34,531 bases of DNA, from the IMG/VR virus record IMGVR_UViG_3300027932_000003, positions 1-34,531 of that record; one strand, 5' to 3'. The DNA comes from a virus. Under the pieces are notes generated by a model. It was given only the letters and a program-made list of their open reading frames with translations, had not been told where the DNA came from and searched no databases. A program made the position numbers and the translations under genes. Of this stretch, positions 5,419-34,531 are shown one piece after another (positions within the stretch are counted from its first letter, which is position 1; each line of letters begins with the position of its first letter).

Positions 5419-6726
5419 TTAACCACCTAAATTACTAAATCTCATTAAGTTTATTATTCTATTACAAATTTCTTCATTTTGTACTTTTCCAATTTGTAAA
5501 TCTATGTCTAATGCCTGTAATAGAATTTGAATATCGATACTTTGCTCTTGTCTTCTGGATTCTAAATTTTCGCAATTTACATAGTTATGAATACTATTTA
5601 TCTTCTGTTGAATTAATTCAATTAATGCTTTTAAAATTGAAGGATAAAGAACTCTTGCATTTATAATTTTATCGTAAGTTTTCTTAATTGCTAATTGAAT
5701 AATATGAATTCTATCTAATATTGCAGAAGTGAAAATTTCATAATTTTGTAGATAGTCTTCTAAATCTGGAGTTACTAATTTATTAATTGTATATGCATAT
5801 GGATTTCCAGCGTAAATAATTGGAATACATTTTTGTATAGTTGCTGATTTTGATTCTGTTCCAGCTCCTCTTGTCCAAATACAATTTTCAATTCCAGTTG
5901 ATAGAGTTGAATTTATAGTATTTAGTTCTTTTGTTGAAAAACCATCTTTCCAATTTTGAATTTCATCAAATATCAAACCGTTTGATAGAAATACAGCTCC
6001 ATACATATTGTTTCGAGCATCATATACCAAATTGGCATAAGTTGGAGCTTCCGTGTAATATCTAAAATTGAAAACTTCTTGTAAAATCATGAAAGTTGTA
6101 GTTTTTCCAGTTCCTCTATTAGAAATTTCAATATAATTTATTTGTCTTTTGGTAATTGGAGATTTGAAAAGTGGGAATAGTCTTGGAAGAAAGAGAAATA
6201 TATCATTTATTTCCATTTTAGTCGGGTCATATCCAAAACTTTGCAATAAAAGTGCATAAGTTGAATATTCTGAATTTGCTAATTCAAATAATTCTTTTGC
6301 AATTTCATAATTGTTGGGTGGCTCAATTGAATAAATATCATAAATACGCCAACCTTCTATACCTTTTCTAATTTTGACAAACATGTAACTTGTAATTAAA
6401 TTATAGAAATTTTCAGGATTATCAGCTATAAAATGTGGATCGAAATTTGCAGTAAAACCATTTTGAAATTTTGCTATAACTTCATCATCTTTTACTTTAA
6501 ACTGTATAATTTTAGAGATAAATTTCACTTCATCATTAAAAAGCAAATAAGATTGAAAATATTGTTGATCAATTCCGCGTTTGTAAGCTTTTAAAATTTC
6601 AATTTTCTTCCTTTCTTCAATTTGTTTTCCAGAGAGAATTATATTTAAAACTCTTTCTGTATCTCTTGGATTATAAAAAAAAGAATGAGATTTTATTTTT
6701 TCAAGAAGTTGATTTGAACTACTCAT
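5419..6726 (-). CDS. P-loop ATPase, putative helicase (435 aa)
   Basis: Walker A NRGTGKTT; size and position between the SSB-like and nuclease genes. Confidence 0.7.
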
Positions 6727-7609: not shown

Positions 7610-7954
7610 GTGAACGGTAAAAAAGTTTTTAGCTATCATTTTCTTTATGTTTACACGTATTTTATTACTATTGCTACAAATTATCACTATAATGATACGA
7701 CAAAAATCTATAAAAAATTCAGACAATATATTTATAATCATGATAAAAATTCTCATATTTTTTCAGTAAAAGAATATACAACAAGATTACATGGTCTACA
7801 TTATCATGTTTTAGTTTTCACGAATAAAAGGCTTGACTATTCCAGAGTTCATAAGCAAATGCCAAAACATTCAGATATAAATATTCAATTAGTTCCAAAA
7901 ACAAAAAATGATATAAAAAAAGTTTTAACTTATATGTTAAAAAATCAAAAATAA
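7610..7954 (+). CDS. HUH-superfamily rolling-circle replication initiator Rep (114 aa)
   Basis: LHGLHYHVLVF (HUH motif: H-hydrophobic-H followed by hydrophobics) and VLTYMLK (YxxK, Tyr at residue 108 by my count). The frame has no ATG before residue 84, so the start is GTG at 7610, right at the expected leaderless position. Confidence 0.75.
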   Translation: MNGKKVFSYHFLYVYTYFITIATNYHYNDTTKIYKKFRQYIYNHDKNSHIFSVKEYTTRLHGLHYHVLVFTNKRLDYSRVHKQMPKHSDINIQLVPKTKNDIKKVLTYMLKNQK

Positions 7955-7955
7955 A

Positions 7956-8243
7956 TTACTTAGATTGAGGTTGTTGATTTTGTTCAGCTTTTTTCTGTGC
8001 TAATGCATTTACATCTCTTAATGTATCCATATTCAAGAGTGAATTAATTCCAAGGGTTGTAGTATCTTTAATTGATTCAACTGCTGAAATTGTAGATTTT
8101 GTCATCTGATCTACTGCAATTTGGAATGATTGATTTGCTTGCTTTTGATTGTAGAGATATACTACTTCTCCAACAACATAGCTAGCTATTAGAACTCCCA
8201 TCAGTACTAAAAATCCTTCTAAAGCTGTTTGGCTTAGTGTCAT
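7956..8243 (-). CDS. small membrane protein, N-terminal TM helix plus helical domain (95 aa); PVAP-like candidate
   Basis: One hydrophobic segment (ALEGFLVLMGVLIASYVVGEVVYLY) followed by about 65 polar, helix-prone residues; architecture resembles the roughly 98-aa rudivirus pyramid egress protein. Assignment is tentative. Confidence 0.5.
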   Translation of the reverse strand: MTLSQTALEGFLVLMGVLIASYVVGEVVYLYNQKQANQSFQIAVDQMTKSTISAVESIKDTTTLGINSLLNMDTLRDVNALAQKKAEQNQQPQSK

Positions 8244-8341
8244 TTCAATTTTATTATATGCAAATTACTTAGTAATAAAGTTTATGCAAAAAATCGAAAT
8301 ATATAAATATGTCATAATGTATGTTTATAAAATGAGGAAAA

Positions 8342-8503
8342 ATGATGGAGAAAGTTAAAAAGGAAAGAACAGTTTTCGGTATAAATATAGATAAAGAATT
8401 AAAAAGAAAATTAAAAGTATATTGTGCAAATAATAATATCACGCTAACAGAAGCAATTGAAGAAGCTTTAGAAGAATATTTACAGAAAAGGGGAACTAAA
8501 TGA
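8342..8503 (+). CDS. ribbon-helix-helix (CopG/Arc-like) DNA-binding protein (53 aa)
   Basis: Hand-translated: [53 protein letters not shown]; promoter atataaataTGTCATAat at 8301..8318; missed by the ORF track. Confidence 0.55.
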
Positions 8504-8646
8504 GAGTAATAACGTTTAAAGTTGAAGAAGATCTTTTGCAAAAACTTGATAAATATGCTATGAATCACAAGCTAAACAGATCTGAAGTAATTAGGCAAGC
8601 ATTAATGGAATTCTTGAGACCAAATACTACAACATATGATAGTTAA
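8500..8646 (+). CDS. ribbon-helix-helix DNA-binding protein (48 aa)
   Basis: Hand-translated: [48 protein letters not shown]; textbook RHH pattern; ATG overlaps the stop of the upstream RHH gene (ATGA). Confidence 0.55.
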
Positions 8647-8701: not shown

Positions 8702-8944
8702 TCATTTCTTTCTTTTTAATCTTTCAATTTCTGCTTTAAGTTCATCAATTTCATCATAAATATCTGCAAAGATATCATAAATTACTACATATATAATTGC
8801 AAAAATTCCAGATGCAAAAAATGTTGATATTATAACTATTGGCATATTTTTTACAAGAATTCCTAATGACATGACTATTAAAGCTAAAGACATTAAAGCT
8901 AAAAAAATTAAGAAAACTATTATTTCACGAAATTCTCTTTCCAT
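8702..8944 (-). CDS. two-TM membrane protein with C-terminal coiled-coil tail (80 aa), paralog A
   Basis: Two hydrophobic segments then ELKAEIERLKRKK; own promoter aaataaatttGTCAGaaaacg on the minus strand. Confidence 0.5.
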   Translation of the reverse strand: MEREFREIIVFLIFLALMSLALIVMSLGILVKNMPIVIISTFFASGIFAIIYVVIYDIFADIYDEIDELKAEIERLKRKK

Positions 8945-8956
8945 TTTTTCTCATTT

Positions 8957-9232
8957 TCATTTTTCGTTTTCTGACAAATTTATTTCTTGTTTTCTCTCTC
9001 TTTTTAATCTTTCAATTTCTAGTTCAAGTTTATTAATTCTTGTATCTAAATCATCTATCAAATCTATTATCCAAGTAAAAATTATTGCCAACAAAATTGA
9101 TACAATTGCGGAATATAAAACTATATTTTGTAGATTTTTAGATAAAATTCCTTCAGAAAATATTAAAAGTATATTAAGTATTACAATTGAAAGCATTATA
9201 GAAATATATAACCTAAAAGCTAATTTGCCCAT
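8957..9232 (-). CDS. two-TM membrane protein with C-terminal coiled-coil tail (91 aa), paralog B
   Basis: Same architecture, ending KLELEIERLKRERK; own promoter tatatatttGTCAGataacg on the minus strand. Confidence 0.5.
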   Translation of the reverse strand: MGKLAFRLYISIMLSIVILNILLIFSEGILSKNLQNIVLYSAIVSILLAIIFTWIIDLIDDLDTRINKLELEIERLKRERKQEINLSENEK

Positions 9233-12484: not shown

Positions 12485-12712
12485 TCAAGTTTTGCCTAAT
12501 CTCATTTTTATTTCTTCTATTTCTTTTTTAAGTTCATTTTGAGAAATCTTTAATTCCTCAATCTGAATTTTCAGATTTTGTAATTCTGAATTTACTATCT
12601 CTTTAACAGCATCTTTCAGAGCTTGTTTTATCTTAAGATAAAGTTGAACAATTGCGAATAATGTAGTTACAAATGTAGAAATTATAGTTAGAATTAAAGT
12701 TATTTCACTCAT
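12485..12712 (-). CDS. membrane-anchored coiled-coil protein (75 aa)
   Basis: N-terminal hydrophobic helix (ITLILTIISTFVTTLFAIVQLYL) then heptad-like ELQNLKIQIEELKISQNELKKEIEEIKMRL; overlaps the upstream gene by 8 nt. Confidence 0.5.
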   Translation of the reverse strand: MSEITLILTIISTFVTTLFAIVQLYLKIKQALKDAVKEIVNSELQNLKIQIEELKISQNELKKEIEEIKMRLGKT

Positions 12713-13088
12713 CTTTTATTCCCTCTAATTGATCTTCTAAATTATCTAAATTTAAATTTTCATCTTCTTTAAATTTTTGGTAAACAGAATCTACTTGTTT
12801 CGCGTAAGGCTGAGGATAAACTACGCGAAAATCTGCGATATCAATTCTACCAGTTTTAGGATCTTTAGCTATTAAAAATTGGAAATAGAAAGTAAATCCG
12901 GGGATATATAAATCTACAATTATGGGCAATTCTGAATTTTTTAAAACAATAATTGAATGTGGTAAATATTTTGATAATCCATAAATTTGACCTTGTAATT
13001 CTAATTCTCTAATTTTATCTATCGCGATTCTAACAGGGCCGAAAATATTCGCGAATTCATCTTTAACTTGCATAATTATATATTTCAT
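12705..13088 (-). CDS. hypothetical protein (127 aa)
   Basis: ATG ORF, first gene of a two-gene leftward unit. Confidence 0.55.
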   Translation of the reverse strand: MKYIIMQVKDEFANIFGPVRIAIDKIRELELQGQIYGLSKYLPHSIIVLKNSELPIIVDLYIPGFTFYFQFLIAKDPKTGRIDIADFRVVYPQPYAKQVDSVYQKFKEDENLNLDNLEDQLEGIKDE

Positions 13089-31623: not shown

Positions 31624-31920
31624 TTAACAATTAATTGTCCAGTCTCTATTTCCATATTTTTCCTCAAACTCTTGGTATTTTCTTTGTTTTAATAATTTTA
31701 TAATTTTTTTAACTTCTTCTTCTGTAATTTTTAAACAATTCCTTCCATTATAATGGCTAATTGTAATTGTCGGAGTAACTTTGTCACGGTTTACTGTTTC
31801 AACTTGAACATAATATTCGCCATTTTTTTCAACAATATAATAATAATAATCTTCAAACTTAGTTTTTACTTTTTTAGAATAAATTATCTTCCTATCTTCT
31901 TGATTTGAACTTTCGGACAT
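31624..31920 (-). CDS. hypothetical protein (98 aa)
   Basis: ATG ORF; promoter tttttatatttGTCATAaaag then aggtga. Confidence 0.5.
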   Translation of the reverse strand: MSESSNQEDRKIIYSKKVKTKFEDYYYYIVEKNGEYYVQVETVNRDKVTPTITISHYNGRNCLKITEEEVKKIIKLLKQRKYQEFEEKYGNRDWTINC

Positions 31921-32966: not shown

Positions 32967-32992
32967 CTTTTTCACCATTATCTATTATCTCT

Positions 32993-34531
32993 AAACTCAT
33001 ATTTAAATCTTTCTCTACCTTTTCATGTCTTCATTTTTCGACTTATAATTATGTTATTTTTGATGATCATTATATTTTCTTTCATAAATGACTTTCCCAT
33101 GAATTTTTAATACACCAGTTCTATCAAATTCAGCTAACGCATTCAAATACTCCTTGTAAGCTTTGATAATATAATCTATTCTATTATGCATTCTTTCTAA
33201 AATTTTTTTCTGCTCAGCAGTTAATTTATGTACTCTTGTCATTTTTTATCATCTACAAATCATCATATATTATATGACGAATATAAAACATTCTCTATCT
33301 CCTTAACTCTTATCGCCACCTCTCTCTATAGAGAACGTGTAAATTCTGTCTCTCCAATTTCTCTCATAACACCAAACATAAATTGTTTCCTAACGGTGAA
33401 AAATCCTAAAAAAACCTATTTTAGGTTTGACTATAATTTATTAATTATAAACTACTAACTACATAACTATATAATTATTATATTGAATAACTAGATAGTT
33501 TCCATATTCTCTAAATTATTAAATCTCCTTACAATTTTTACCATAAAATACTGATATAAATCCAAACTGTATACAGAATCTTCTATTGAATTGAAAGAAA
33601 AAAAGAAACTATATTTTACACTTGAACTACAAAACTATAATTATTATATTATAAACTACTAATTAGTAGTTAGCTAATTATATAATTATATAACTTCATA
33701 ATTATATAATTATCTAATTTAAATGTTAATAATAATATATATAAAAAAATAATAATAAGAAGAAAGATAATGCCCACTAACAATACTAAATGCTTTCTTC
33801 TGGTATATAAACTTTTCTTTCTAAACTTCCAATTTCTCCAACACTAAACGCAAAAAACTAACAACACATAACGATTTGAATAAATATAACAAATTAACAA
33901 TATGTTTAGTATCTTTCTAACTTTAAATTGAGGTTTTGGTTTGCTAGAATTAAGAAATTAAATAAATTATGAATATGTTTAGTAACTAAAAACTTTAAAT
34001 TGTGGGTTTGGTTCCCTCCAAATTATAAATTATAATATTATAGTTAGTAGTTATTAATATCCACAAATTAACATTTATTACAAATTTCCAAAGTTTGAAT
34101 TTGCAAATTTTATATTACAAATTTCACTAAATGACAGATTAATTGTAATTTAGGAATTTAGAAAATTAGTATTTTTTATCATAGTTGAAAAATTATTTGG
34201 AAATGTAGAATTATTTGGAATTTAGGAATTTCCAATTTTTTAACTTTTTTGCAGAAAATGATAGATTATTTCAAATTTAGGAAATTAGGAATTTACAATT
34301 TTTCTCATTTTTTGCACAATTTACGCAAAATGACAGATTAATTGGAATTTTGGAAGTTTGAATTTTTTGCACCGCTCCAATTATTATTTGGAGGTGTAGA
34401 ATTAATTGGAATTTCCAATTTATTGCGAAAGTTGGGAAATTTGCGAAAAAAACGAAAAAAACGAAAGAAATTGGAATTTTCAATTTTTTGCATTAGTTGT
34501 GAAATTTTCGCAGAAAATGAAAAAAACTACA
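32993..34531. repeat. Right inverted terminal repeat (ITR)
   Basis: Mirror copy of 1..1539; the window ends with the reverse complement of its first bases. Confidence 0.85.
33054..33242 (-). CDS. ITR-encoded hypothetical protein (62 aa), right copy
   Basis: Identical translation to 1290..1478; mirrored promoter. Confidence 0.5.
   Translation of the reverse strand: MTRVHKLTAEQKKILERMHNRIDYIIKAYKEYLNALAEFDRTGVLKIHGKVIYERKYNDHQK

Follow-up and report, generated by a model that had tools for sequence, protein, structure and literature searches.

A P98/C92-family protein of 95 residues as the very probable builder of virion-egress pyramids in a Usarudivirus-like genome

We analysed a stretch of viral DNA of 34,531 nucleotides (IMG/VR record IMGVR_UViG_3300027932_000003, positions 1 to 34,531), called the window throughout, in which the open reading frame (ORF) at 7956..8243 on the minus strand very probably encodes the virus's virion-egress pyramid protein (PVAP) and, by analogy with its experimentally studied homologues, would be the sole builder of the virus-associated pyramids (VAPs) through which lytic egress takes place. 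By sequence, the 95-aa ORF is assigned unambiguously to the PVAP (P98/C92) family, and in every sequence and architecture feature of PVAPs that could be tested its product agrees with that family. Pyramid formation by the 95-aa protein is something we infer from this homology. The gene and the predicted parts of its product are arranged as follows.

7956..8243, minus strand: PVAP coding sequence, 95 aa plus TAA, assigned through the phrog_8367 match, the identity to P98 and C92, and dN/dS.
8151..8225, minus strand: predicted N-terminal transmembrane (TM) helix (ALEGFLVLMGVLIASYVVGEVVYLY), codons 7–31, with the conserved pair G25-E26, from the 19-residue Kyte-Doolittle scan, pLDDT and the alignment.
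7977..8150, minus strand: predicted polar alpha-helical C-terminal domain, codons 32–89, with the block ...TT..IN...NMDTLRDVNxLAxKK, from the AlphaFold2 model and the invariant columns.
7959..7976, minus strand: Q/N-rich C-terminal tail, codons 90–95, predicted to be disordered and variable in length, from pLDDT and the orthologue alignments.

The assignment is carried by a profile match to phrog_8367, 'pyramid forming protein', which has an E-value of 1.3e-52 and extends over profile positions 1–94 of 96; among the other PHROG families none was matched significantly, with E-values of at least 0.037 and phrog_608 'holin' at 0.048. Similarity to PVAP family proteins, on which a preliminary description of this DNA had staked its proposal, was found in both of the BLASTP comparisons that it had suggested: with SIRV2 P98, the 95-aa protein shares 64% identity over the full length (E 4e-44), and with STIV C92 it shares 58% (E 7e-38). 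P98 and C92 are themselves 59% identical to each other as computed here, or 55.4% by the authors' count (PMC3265310), and the 95-aa protein therefore falls inside the sequence space that has been validated. Together with the syntenic, annotated orthologues described below, these matches bear out the PVAP-like assignment that had been put forward from architecture only, a guess that proved right for this ORF.

A tblastn search of the 95-aa protein against 50,697 phage and archaeal virus records matched 36 of them, all belonging to STIV or to rudiviruses of Sulfolobus, Saccharolobus or Stygiolobus, and the RefSeq versions of these records carry the annotation 'pyramid forming protein'. Identities in this search were highest for SIRV4–SIRV11 (82–89%), followed by SIRV1, SIRV2 and SIRV3 (62–65%), STIV (54–64%), SRV (46%, a partial match) and SSRV1 (45%). 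Searching in the opposite direction, with seven known PVAPs as tblastn queries against the window, returned 7956..8243 alone, all other matches having E-values above 0.1, so that a second PVAP copy was not found in the window.

Conservation within the family follows a consistent pattern. In an alignment of eight sequences that spans the rudiviruses and STIV, SSRV1 and SRV included, the invariant columns (A43, A54, T61, T62, N67, M72, L75, D77, V78, N79, L81, A82 and K85) are all kept in the 95-aa protein, and two of them, D77 and K85, are still invariant across all representatives of the family at 50% identity, even the most divergent. Among 42 closer homologues we counted 37 invariant columns, with residues 32–85 nearly invariant and with G10, F11, L12, L18, Y22, G25 and E26 invariant in the TM region; variation in sequence and length is concentrated at the two ends of these homologues, in the first residues and in the Q/N-rich tail, the proteins being 92–98 aa long. 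The size of the product, 95 aa and 10.42 kDa, fits the PVAP class (~92–98 aa, ~10 kDa). The family comprises 157 clusters at 90% identity and, among 1.84 billion representative proteins, no more than seven at 50% identity, a narrow width that agrees with the reported rarity of PVAP and its confinement to viruses of thermoacidophilic archaea (PMC12596118). PVAP has also been counted among the core genes that every SIRV carries (PMC5454432).

In its TM segment and helical content, the architecture of the protein likewise agrees with that of a PVAP. A Kyte-Doolittle scan with a window of 19 residues reaches its maximum of 2.15 at residues 12–30 (LVLMGVLIASYVVGEVVYL) and does not exceed 0.61 beyond residue 31; this single peak therefore indicates exactly one segment of membrane-spanning length, located at the N-terminus, as the preliminary description had it. 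That description had also counted about 65 helix-prone polar residues after the helix, a figure close to what we find, with the final 64 residues being high in Q, N, S, T, K and A and an AlphaFold2 model, built from a 42-sequence alignment, showing helix over residues 3–89. Mean pLDDT of the helical part is 75, with values of 83–92 over residues 1–30, and drops below 50 in residues 90–95, which are modelled as disordered. For VAP formation, P98 can reportedly do without its final ~10 residues. The earliest basic residue of the 95-aa protein is K34, and the absence of any K or R ahead of the TM segment means that, on the basis of hydropathy only, the protein is without a Sec-like n-region. As K34 follows the TM segment and no basic residue precedes it, the positive-inside rule predicts an N-out/C-in topology with a cytoplasmic C-terminal domain.

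At the level of the fold, the AlphaFold2 monomer is one continuous helix (pTM 0.31) that does not resolve sheet packing, and in this it differs from the literature prediction for PVAP of a TM helix followed by three C-terminal helices (PMC10791045). A Foldseek search of the model against BFVD gave no matches, a single long helix being uninformative for a fold search, and a sequence search of the PDB with the 95-aa protein yielded nothing even at E-values up to 10; by sequence, the PVAP family thus appears to have no detectable solved structure. PVAP also has no Pfam family, and a Pfam scan of the 95-aa protein returned only sub-threshold matches (SoxE_N, 0.076; DUF6427, 0.1).

An architecture of one TM segment plus helices is unspecific when taken alone, and it could describe a generic small membrane protein or a holin-like pore former; other small ORFs of the window, at 8702..8944, 8957..9232 and 12485..12712, combine TM segments with coiled coils. 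The sub-threshold match of the 95-aa protein to the phrog_608 'holin' family mentioned above points, weakly, in the same direction; however, it is not significant when set against the E-value of the PVAP profile, and no holin family of Pfam was matched. The protein is moreover identical at 58–64% of positions, over the full length, to both validated PVAPs, which makes functional divergence unlikely, and it has the family-invariant C-terminal motif intact. A generic or holin-like role is accordingly very improbable in our estimation, and the assignment to the PVAP family is the reading that we carry forward.

The preliminary description had ranked three ORFs of the window as candidates, and its order was right. 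Its second candidate, the 75-aa ORF at 12485..12712 on the minus strand, would be the pyramid protein if the 95-aa ORF served another role. In keeping with its earlier characterisation as a TM helix plus coiled coil, this ORF has an N-terminal hydrophobic segment (Kyte-Doolittle 2.39 at residues 4–22), and coiled-coil-type matches were obtained for its C-terminal part, all of them sub-threshold. It is also conserved across the Rudiviridae, including ARV2 and SBRV1, and ARV2 is reported to be without a recognisable PVAP (bioRxiv 10.1101/2020.01.16.907410). Against this, the 75-aa protein belongs to another family, phrog_7330 (E 2.5e-33), as a homologue of SIRV2 ORF84c; known PVAPs give no tblastn matches at 12485..12712; and in SIRV2, P98 by itself suffices for VAPs (PMC4456609). 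We consequently rejected the 75-aa ORF as a PVAP and regard the possibility that it takes this role as almost negligible, the 95-aa ORF being the PVAP gene of the window.

The 75-aa product is a family-wide small membrane protein. It is 77% identical to SIRV2 ORF84c, its family was detected also in ARV2, SBRV1 and SRV, and the start of its gene overlaps the end of an upstream gene of 127 aa (12705..13088). In ARV2 and SBRV1, the tblastn search of the 95-aa protein across the 50,697 records gave no PVAP match, and ARV1, ARV2, ARV3 and MRV1 have been reported to be without a P98-like gene (bioRxiv 10.1101/2020.01.16.907410).

The third candidate, the 98-aa ORF at 31624..31920, had been considered unlikely on account of its hydrophilic character, and we rejected it because it is indeed hydrophilic, with a maximum Kyte-Doolittle value of -0.08, and has no PVAP similarity. 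This position is coding on the minus strand only, the plus strand there having four stops. The ORF found no tblastn match in the 50,697 phage and archaeal virus records, and its profile and structure matches were all sub-threshold (Pfam DUF6438, 0.0024; PDB 3v68, 0.018; SSO0352 DNA-binding protein, 0.5). It is an ORFan of the variable right arm, and the right arm of rudiviruses is the home of accessory and anti-defence genes.

The 95-aa ORF itself runs from ATG to TAA over 95 codons and encodes a product of 10.4 kDa with a pI of 5.1; on the opposite strand, the ORF list of the window holds no overlapping ORF of at least 40 aa. ATG-initiated ORFs of at least 95 aa number 32 in the window, compared to a mean of 0.3 in mononucleotide shuffles of it. 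In comparisons with five orthologues, for which dS lies between 0.6 and 1.6, dN/dS of the ORF is 0.27 (SIRV9), 0.11 (SIRV4), 0.09 (SIRV7), 0.20 (SIRV2) and 0.23 (STIV), and this range of 0.09–0.27 therefore marks it as a coding sequence under purifying selection. The ORF is real, and purifying selection on it is clear. JGI and ENA metagenomes contain a protein identical to the product (P0001), which is encoded on 16 contigs originating from several samples, and the gene order around its gene is constant on these contigs. The product is identical to no isolate's protein, its exact matches being unannotated metagenome proteins only. That it might be a chance ORF or a non-functional remnant in an AT-rich genome, as its small size and the fact that P0001 is named by no source could suggest, is scarcely conceivable and is effectively refuted already by the dN/dS values, the 157 homologous clusters at 90% identity, the 37 invariant columns among 42 homologues, the conserved synteny and the ~0.3 such ORFs expected per shuffled window.

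The window has a G+C content of ~25% and is a complete-looking linear Usarudivirus-like genome. It encodes a rudiviral major capsid protein (134 aa; Pfam Sulf_coat_C, E 1.2e-75) and shows ~87–89% nucleotide identity to SIRV8, SIRV9, SIRV10, SIRV7 and SIRV5 over 75–85% of its first 25 kb, viruses that are placed in the genus Usarudivirus, from Yellowstone. It is bounded by an inverted terminal repeat of 1556 bp (1–1556 and 32976–34531) that is perfect, with 100% complementarity, an identity for which, in a metagenome assembly, an assembly effect could account in part. As the nearest isolates, SIRV8 and SIRV9, are only ~89% identical over 80–85% of the first 25 kb, the virus of the window may constitute a separate Usarudivirus species.

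Gene order places the PVAP gene in a conserved neighbourhood, in which genes for a protease, a PHA01746-like protein, a 90-aa protein and a Rep-like protein lead up to the convergent PVAP gene, followed by divergent ribbon-helix-helix (RHH) genes. The same order is found in SIRV9, SIRV4 and SIRV7 as well as in six metagenome contigs, and the syntenic counterparts of the 95-aa gene are SIRV9 gp17, SIRV4 gp12 and SIRV7 gp11.

Several neighbouring genes are worth recording individually. The ORF at 5419..6726 on the minus strand (435 aa) lies upstream, within the conserved left-arm block shared with the PVAP gene, and matches, through Pfam BrxL_ATPase (9e-15), the ATPase domain of BrxL-like Lon proteases; in SIRV9, the orthologue carries the annotation 'protease'. 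The product of 7610..7954 on the plus strand is a small Rep-like protein of 114 aa (Pfam 117-like_vir, 5e-47; REP_ORF2-G2P, 8e-8) with an HYHVLVF motif, which we take to be, probably, the counterpart of SIRV1 ORF119 Rep; this gene and the PVAP gene are convergent, with their stop codons 1 nt apart. On the other side, two overlapping RHH regulator genes at 8342..8503 and 8500..8646, both on the plus strand (56B_RHH, 4.6e-14; RHH_1, 2e-7), diverge from the PVAP gene, and the intergenic region between them (8244–8341, 98 bp) is highly conserved among usarudiviruses. This pairing of RHH and PVAP genes is kept in SIRV4, SIRV7 and SIRV9 and on every metagenome contig that reaches that far, and in SRV a CopG gene stands immediately upstream of the PVAP gene. 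Also close to the PVAP gene are two tandem paralogues on the minus strand, at 8702..8944 and 8957..9232 (80 and 91 aa; phrog_9310, 2e-41 and 9e-36), whose products are small membrane proteins, each strongly hydrophobic in its N-terminal two-thirds and ending in a charged C-terminal helix (..ELKAEIERLKRK.. and ..LELEIERLKRER.., respectively).

Two candidate signals, both of them putative assignments, flank the PVAP coding sequence.

8273..8279, minus strand: candidate archaeal TATA-like box TTTATTA, 30–36 nt upstream of the ATG.
7939..7955, minus strand: T-rich tract (TTTATTTTTGATTTTTT), candidate archaeal terminator directly after the PVAP stop codon.

The first of these sits in a block, AA[CG]TTTATTA[CT]T, that is conserved in SIRV4, SIRV7 and SIRV9, and SIRV2 has a similar sequence, AACTATATTATT, at an equal distance from the gene. 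Judging from Sulfolobus promoters in general, TTTATTA could plausibly be an archaeal TATA box whose transcript would begin with only a very short leader. The T-rich tract at 7939–7955 falls within the final codons of the convergent Rep-like gene.

How the protein would act can be outlined from the mechanism described for its homologues P98 and C92; on its own, either of these proteins builds pyramids of sevenfold symmetry, in archaea as well as in E. coli and yeast (PMC4456609, PMC10791045, PMC10551542). By analogy, the ~10 kDa PVAP of the window would need no signal peptide and would use the hydrophobic helix at its N-terminus to insert into the cytoplasmic membrane of the host, on whose inner side its polar helical C-terminal domains would form a tightly packed protein sheet. 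Starting from a heptameric nucleus, the recruitment of further subunits would then produce seven triangular facets, yielding a pyramid with an outer layer continuous with the membrane, presumably made of the TM helices, and an inner layer corresponding to the sheet of C-terminal domains. Tight packing between PVAP subunits would exclude lipids and S-layer anchors, and the growing pyramid would therefore be driven outward and break through the S-layer. With the infection well advanced, the facets would come apart along their seams and curl outward, opening an aperture of ~100–200 nm through which the rod-shaped virions could exit. Opening of the pyramids has been observed in archaeal hosts only (PMC4456609, PMC10791045, PMC10551542), and a host-specific trigger is therefore suspected. 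One might speculate further that the RHH (56B-like/CopG) regulator or regulators directly set the timing of the lysis gene and that the disordered Q/N-rich tail tunes this host-specific trigger of pyramid opening, a combined proposal that we consider improbable.

For annotation, the value of the result is that an egress or lysis gene has been identified in the genome of an uncultivated, Yellowstone-type rudivirus. The 95-aa variant was previously unnamed and the PVAP family itself already known; the protein is an ordinary core gene product of its virus group, lies close to annotated orthologues (83–89% identity) and opens no new question. The family being very narrow, each natural variant nevertheless helps slightly in charting which substitutions are tolerated, and this additional one does so with residues 32–85 nearly invariant and a freely varying tail.

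Among the known systems, C92 of STIV (YP_024995; Turriviridae) has the same architecture as the 95-aa protein and has proved sufficient in experiments to form pyramids of sevenfold symmetry (PMC10551542, PMC3265310); it is also reported to interact with the host ESCRT protein CdvB (PMC10551542). Its virus, STIV, is unrelated to rudiviruses, being icosahedral and membrane-containing with a circular genome. A further protein, gp43 of the lipothrixvirus SIFV, whose VAPs are six-sided, is likewise ~10 kDa in size with an N-terminal TM segment followed by helices, and alone forms egress pyramids (PMC10791045); according to the literature, it has no sequence homology to P98 and C92, and its pyramids are sixfold whereas theirs are sevenfold (PMC10791045, PMC10551542).

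SIRV2 P98 (ORF98, NP_666583; Icerudivirus) stands nearer to the 95-aa protein, sharing with it the family Rudiviridae, the size class (98 versus 95 aa), an N-terminal TM helix with a G-E pair and a C-terminal block, ESIKDTTT..IN.LLNMDTLRDVNALA, while the tail of the 95-aa protein is three residues shorter than that of P98 and has another sequence. The location of the gene also differs: in SIRV2 it lies in the right arm, 31.7 kb into a genome of 35.5 kb, where it is surrounded by small ORFs and adjoins the ORF249 and AcrID1 genes, whereas the window has it in its left arm, at 8 kb, flanked by the Rep-like gene and the two RHH genes. Left-arm placement is, however, already the norm in annotated usarudiviruses (SIRV9, SIRV4 and SIRV7). 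The 'pyramid forming protein' genes of the usarudiviruses SIRV4–SIRV11 (for example SIRV9 gp17, YP_009362569) are direct orthologues with identical order and orientation and occur in 95-aa and 98-aa length variants; within this set, the protein of the window combines a SIRV7-like N-terminus (MTLS...) with the 95-aa length of SIRV8 and SIRV9.
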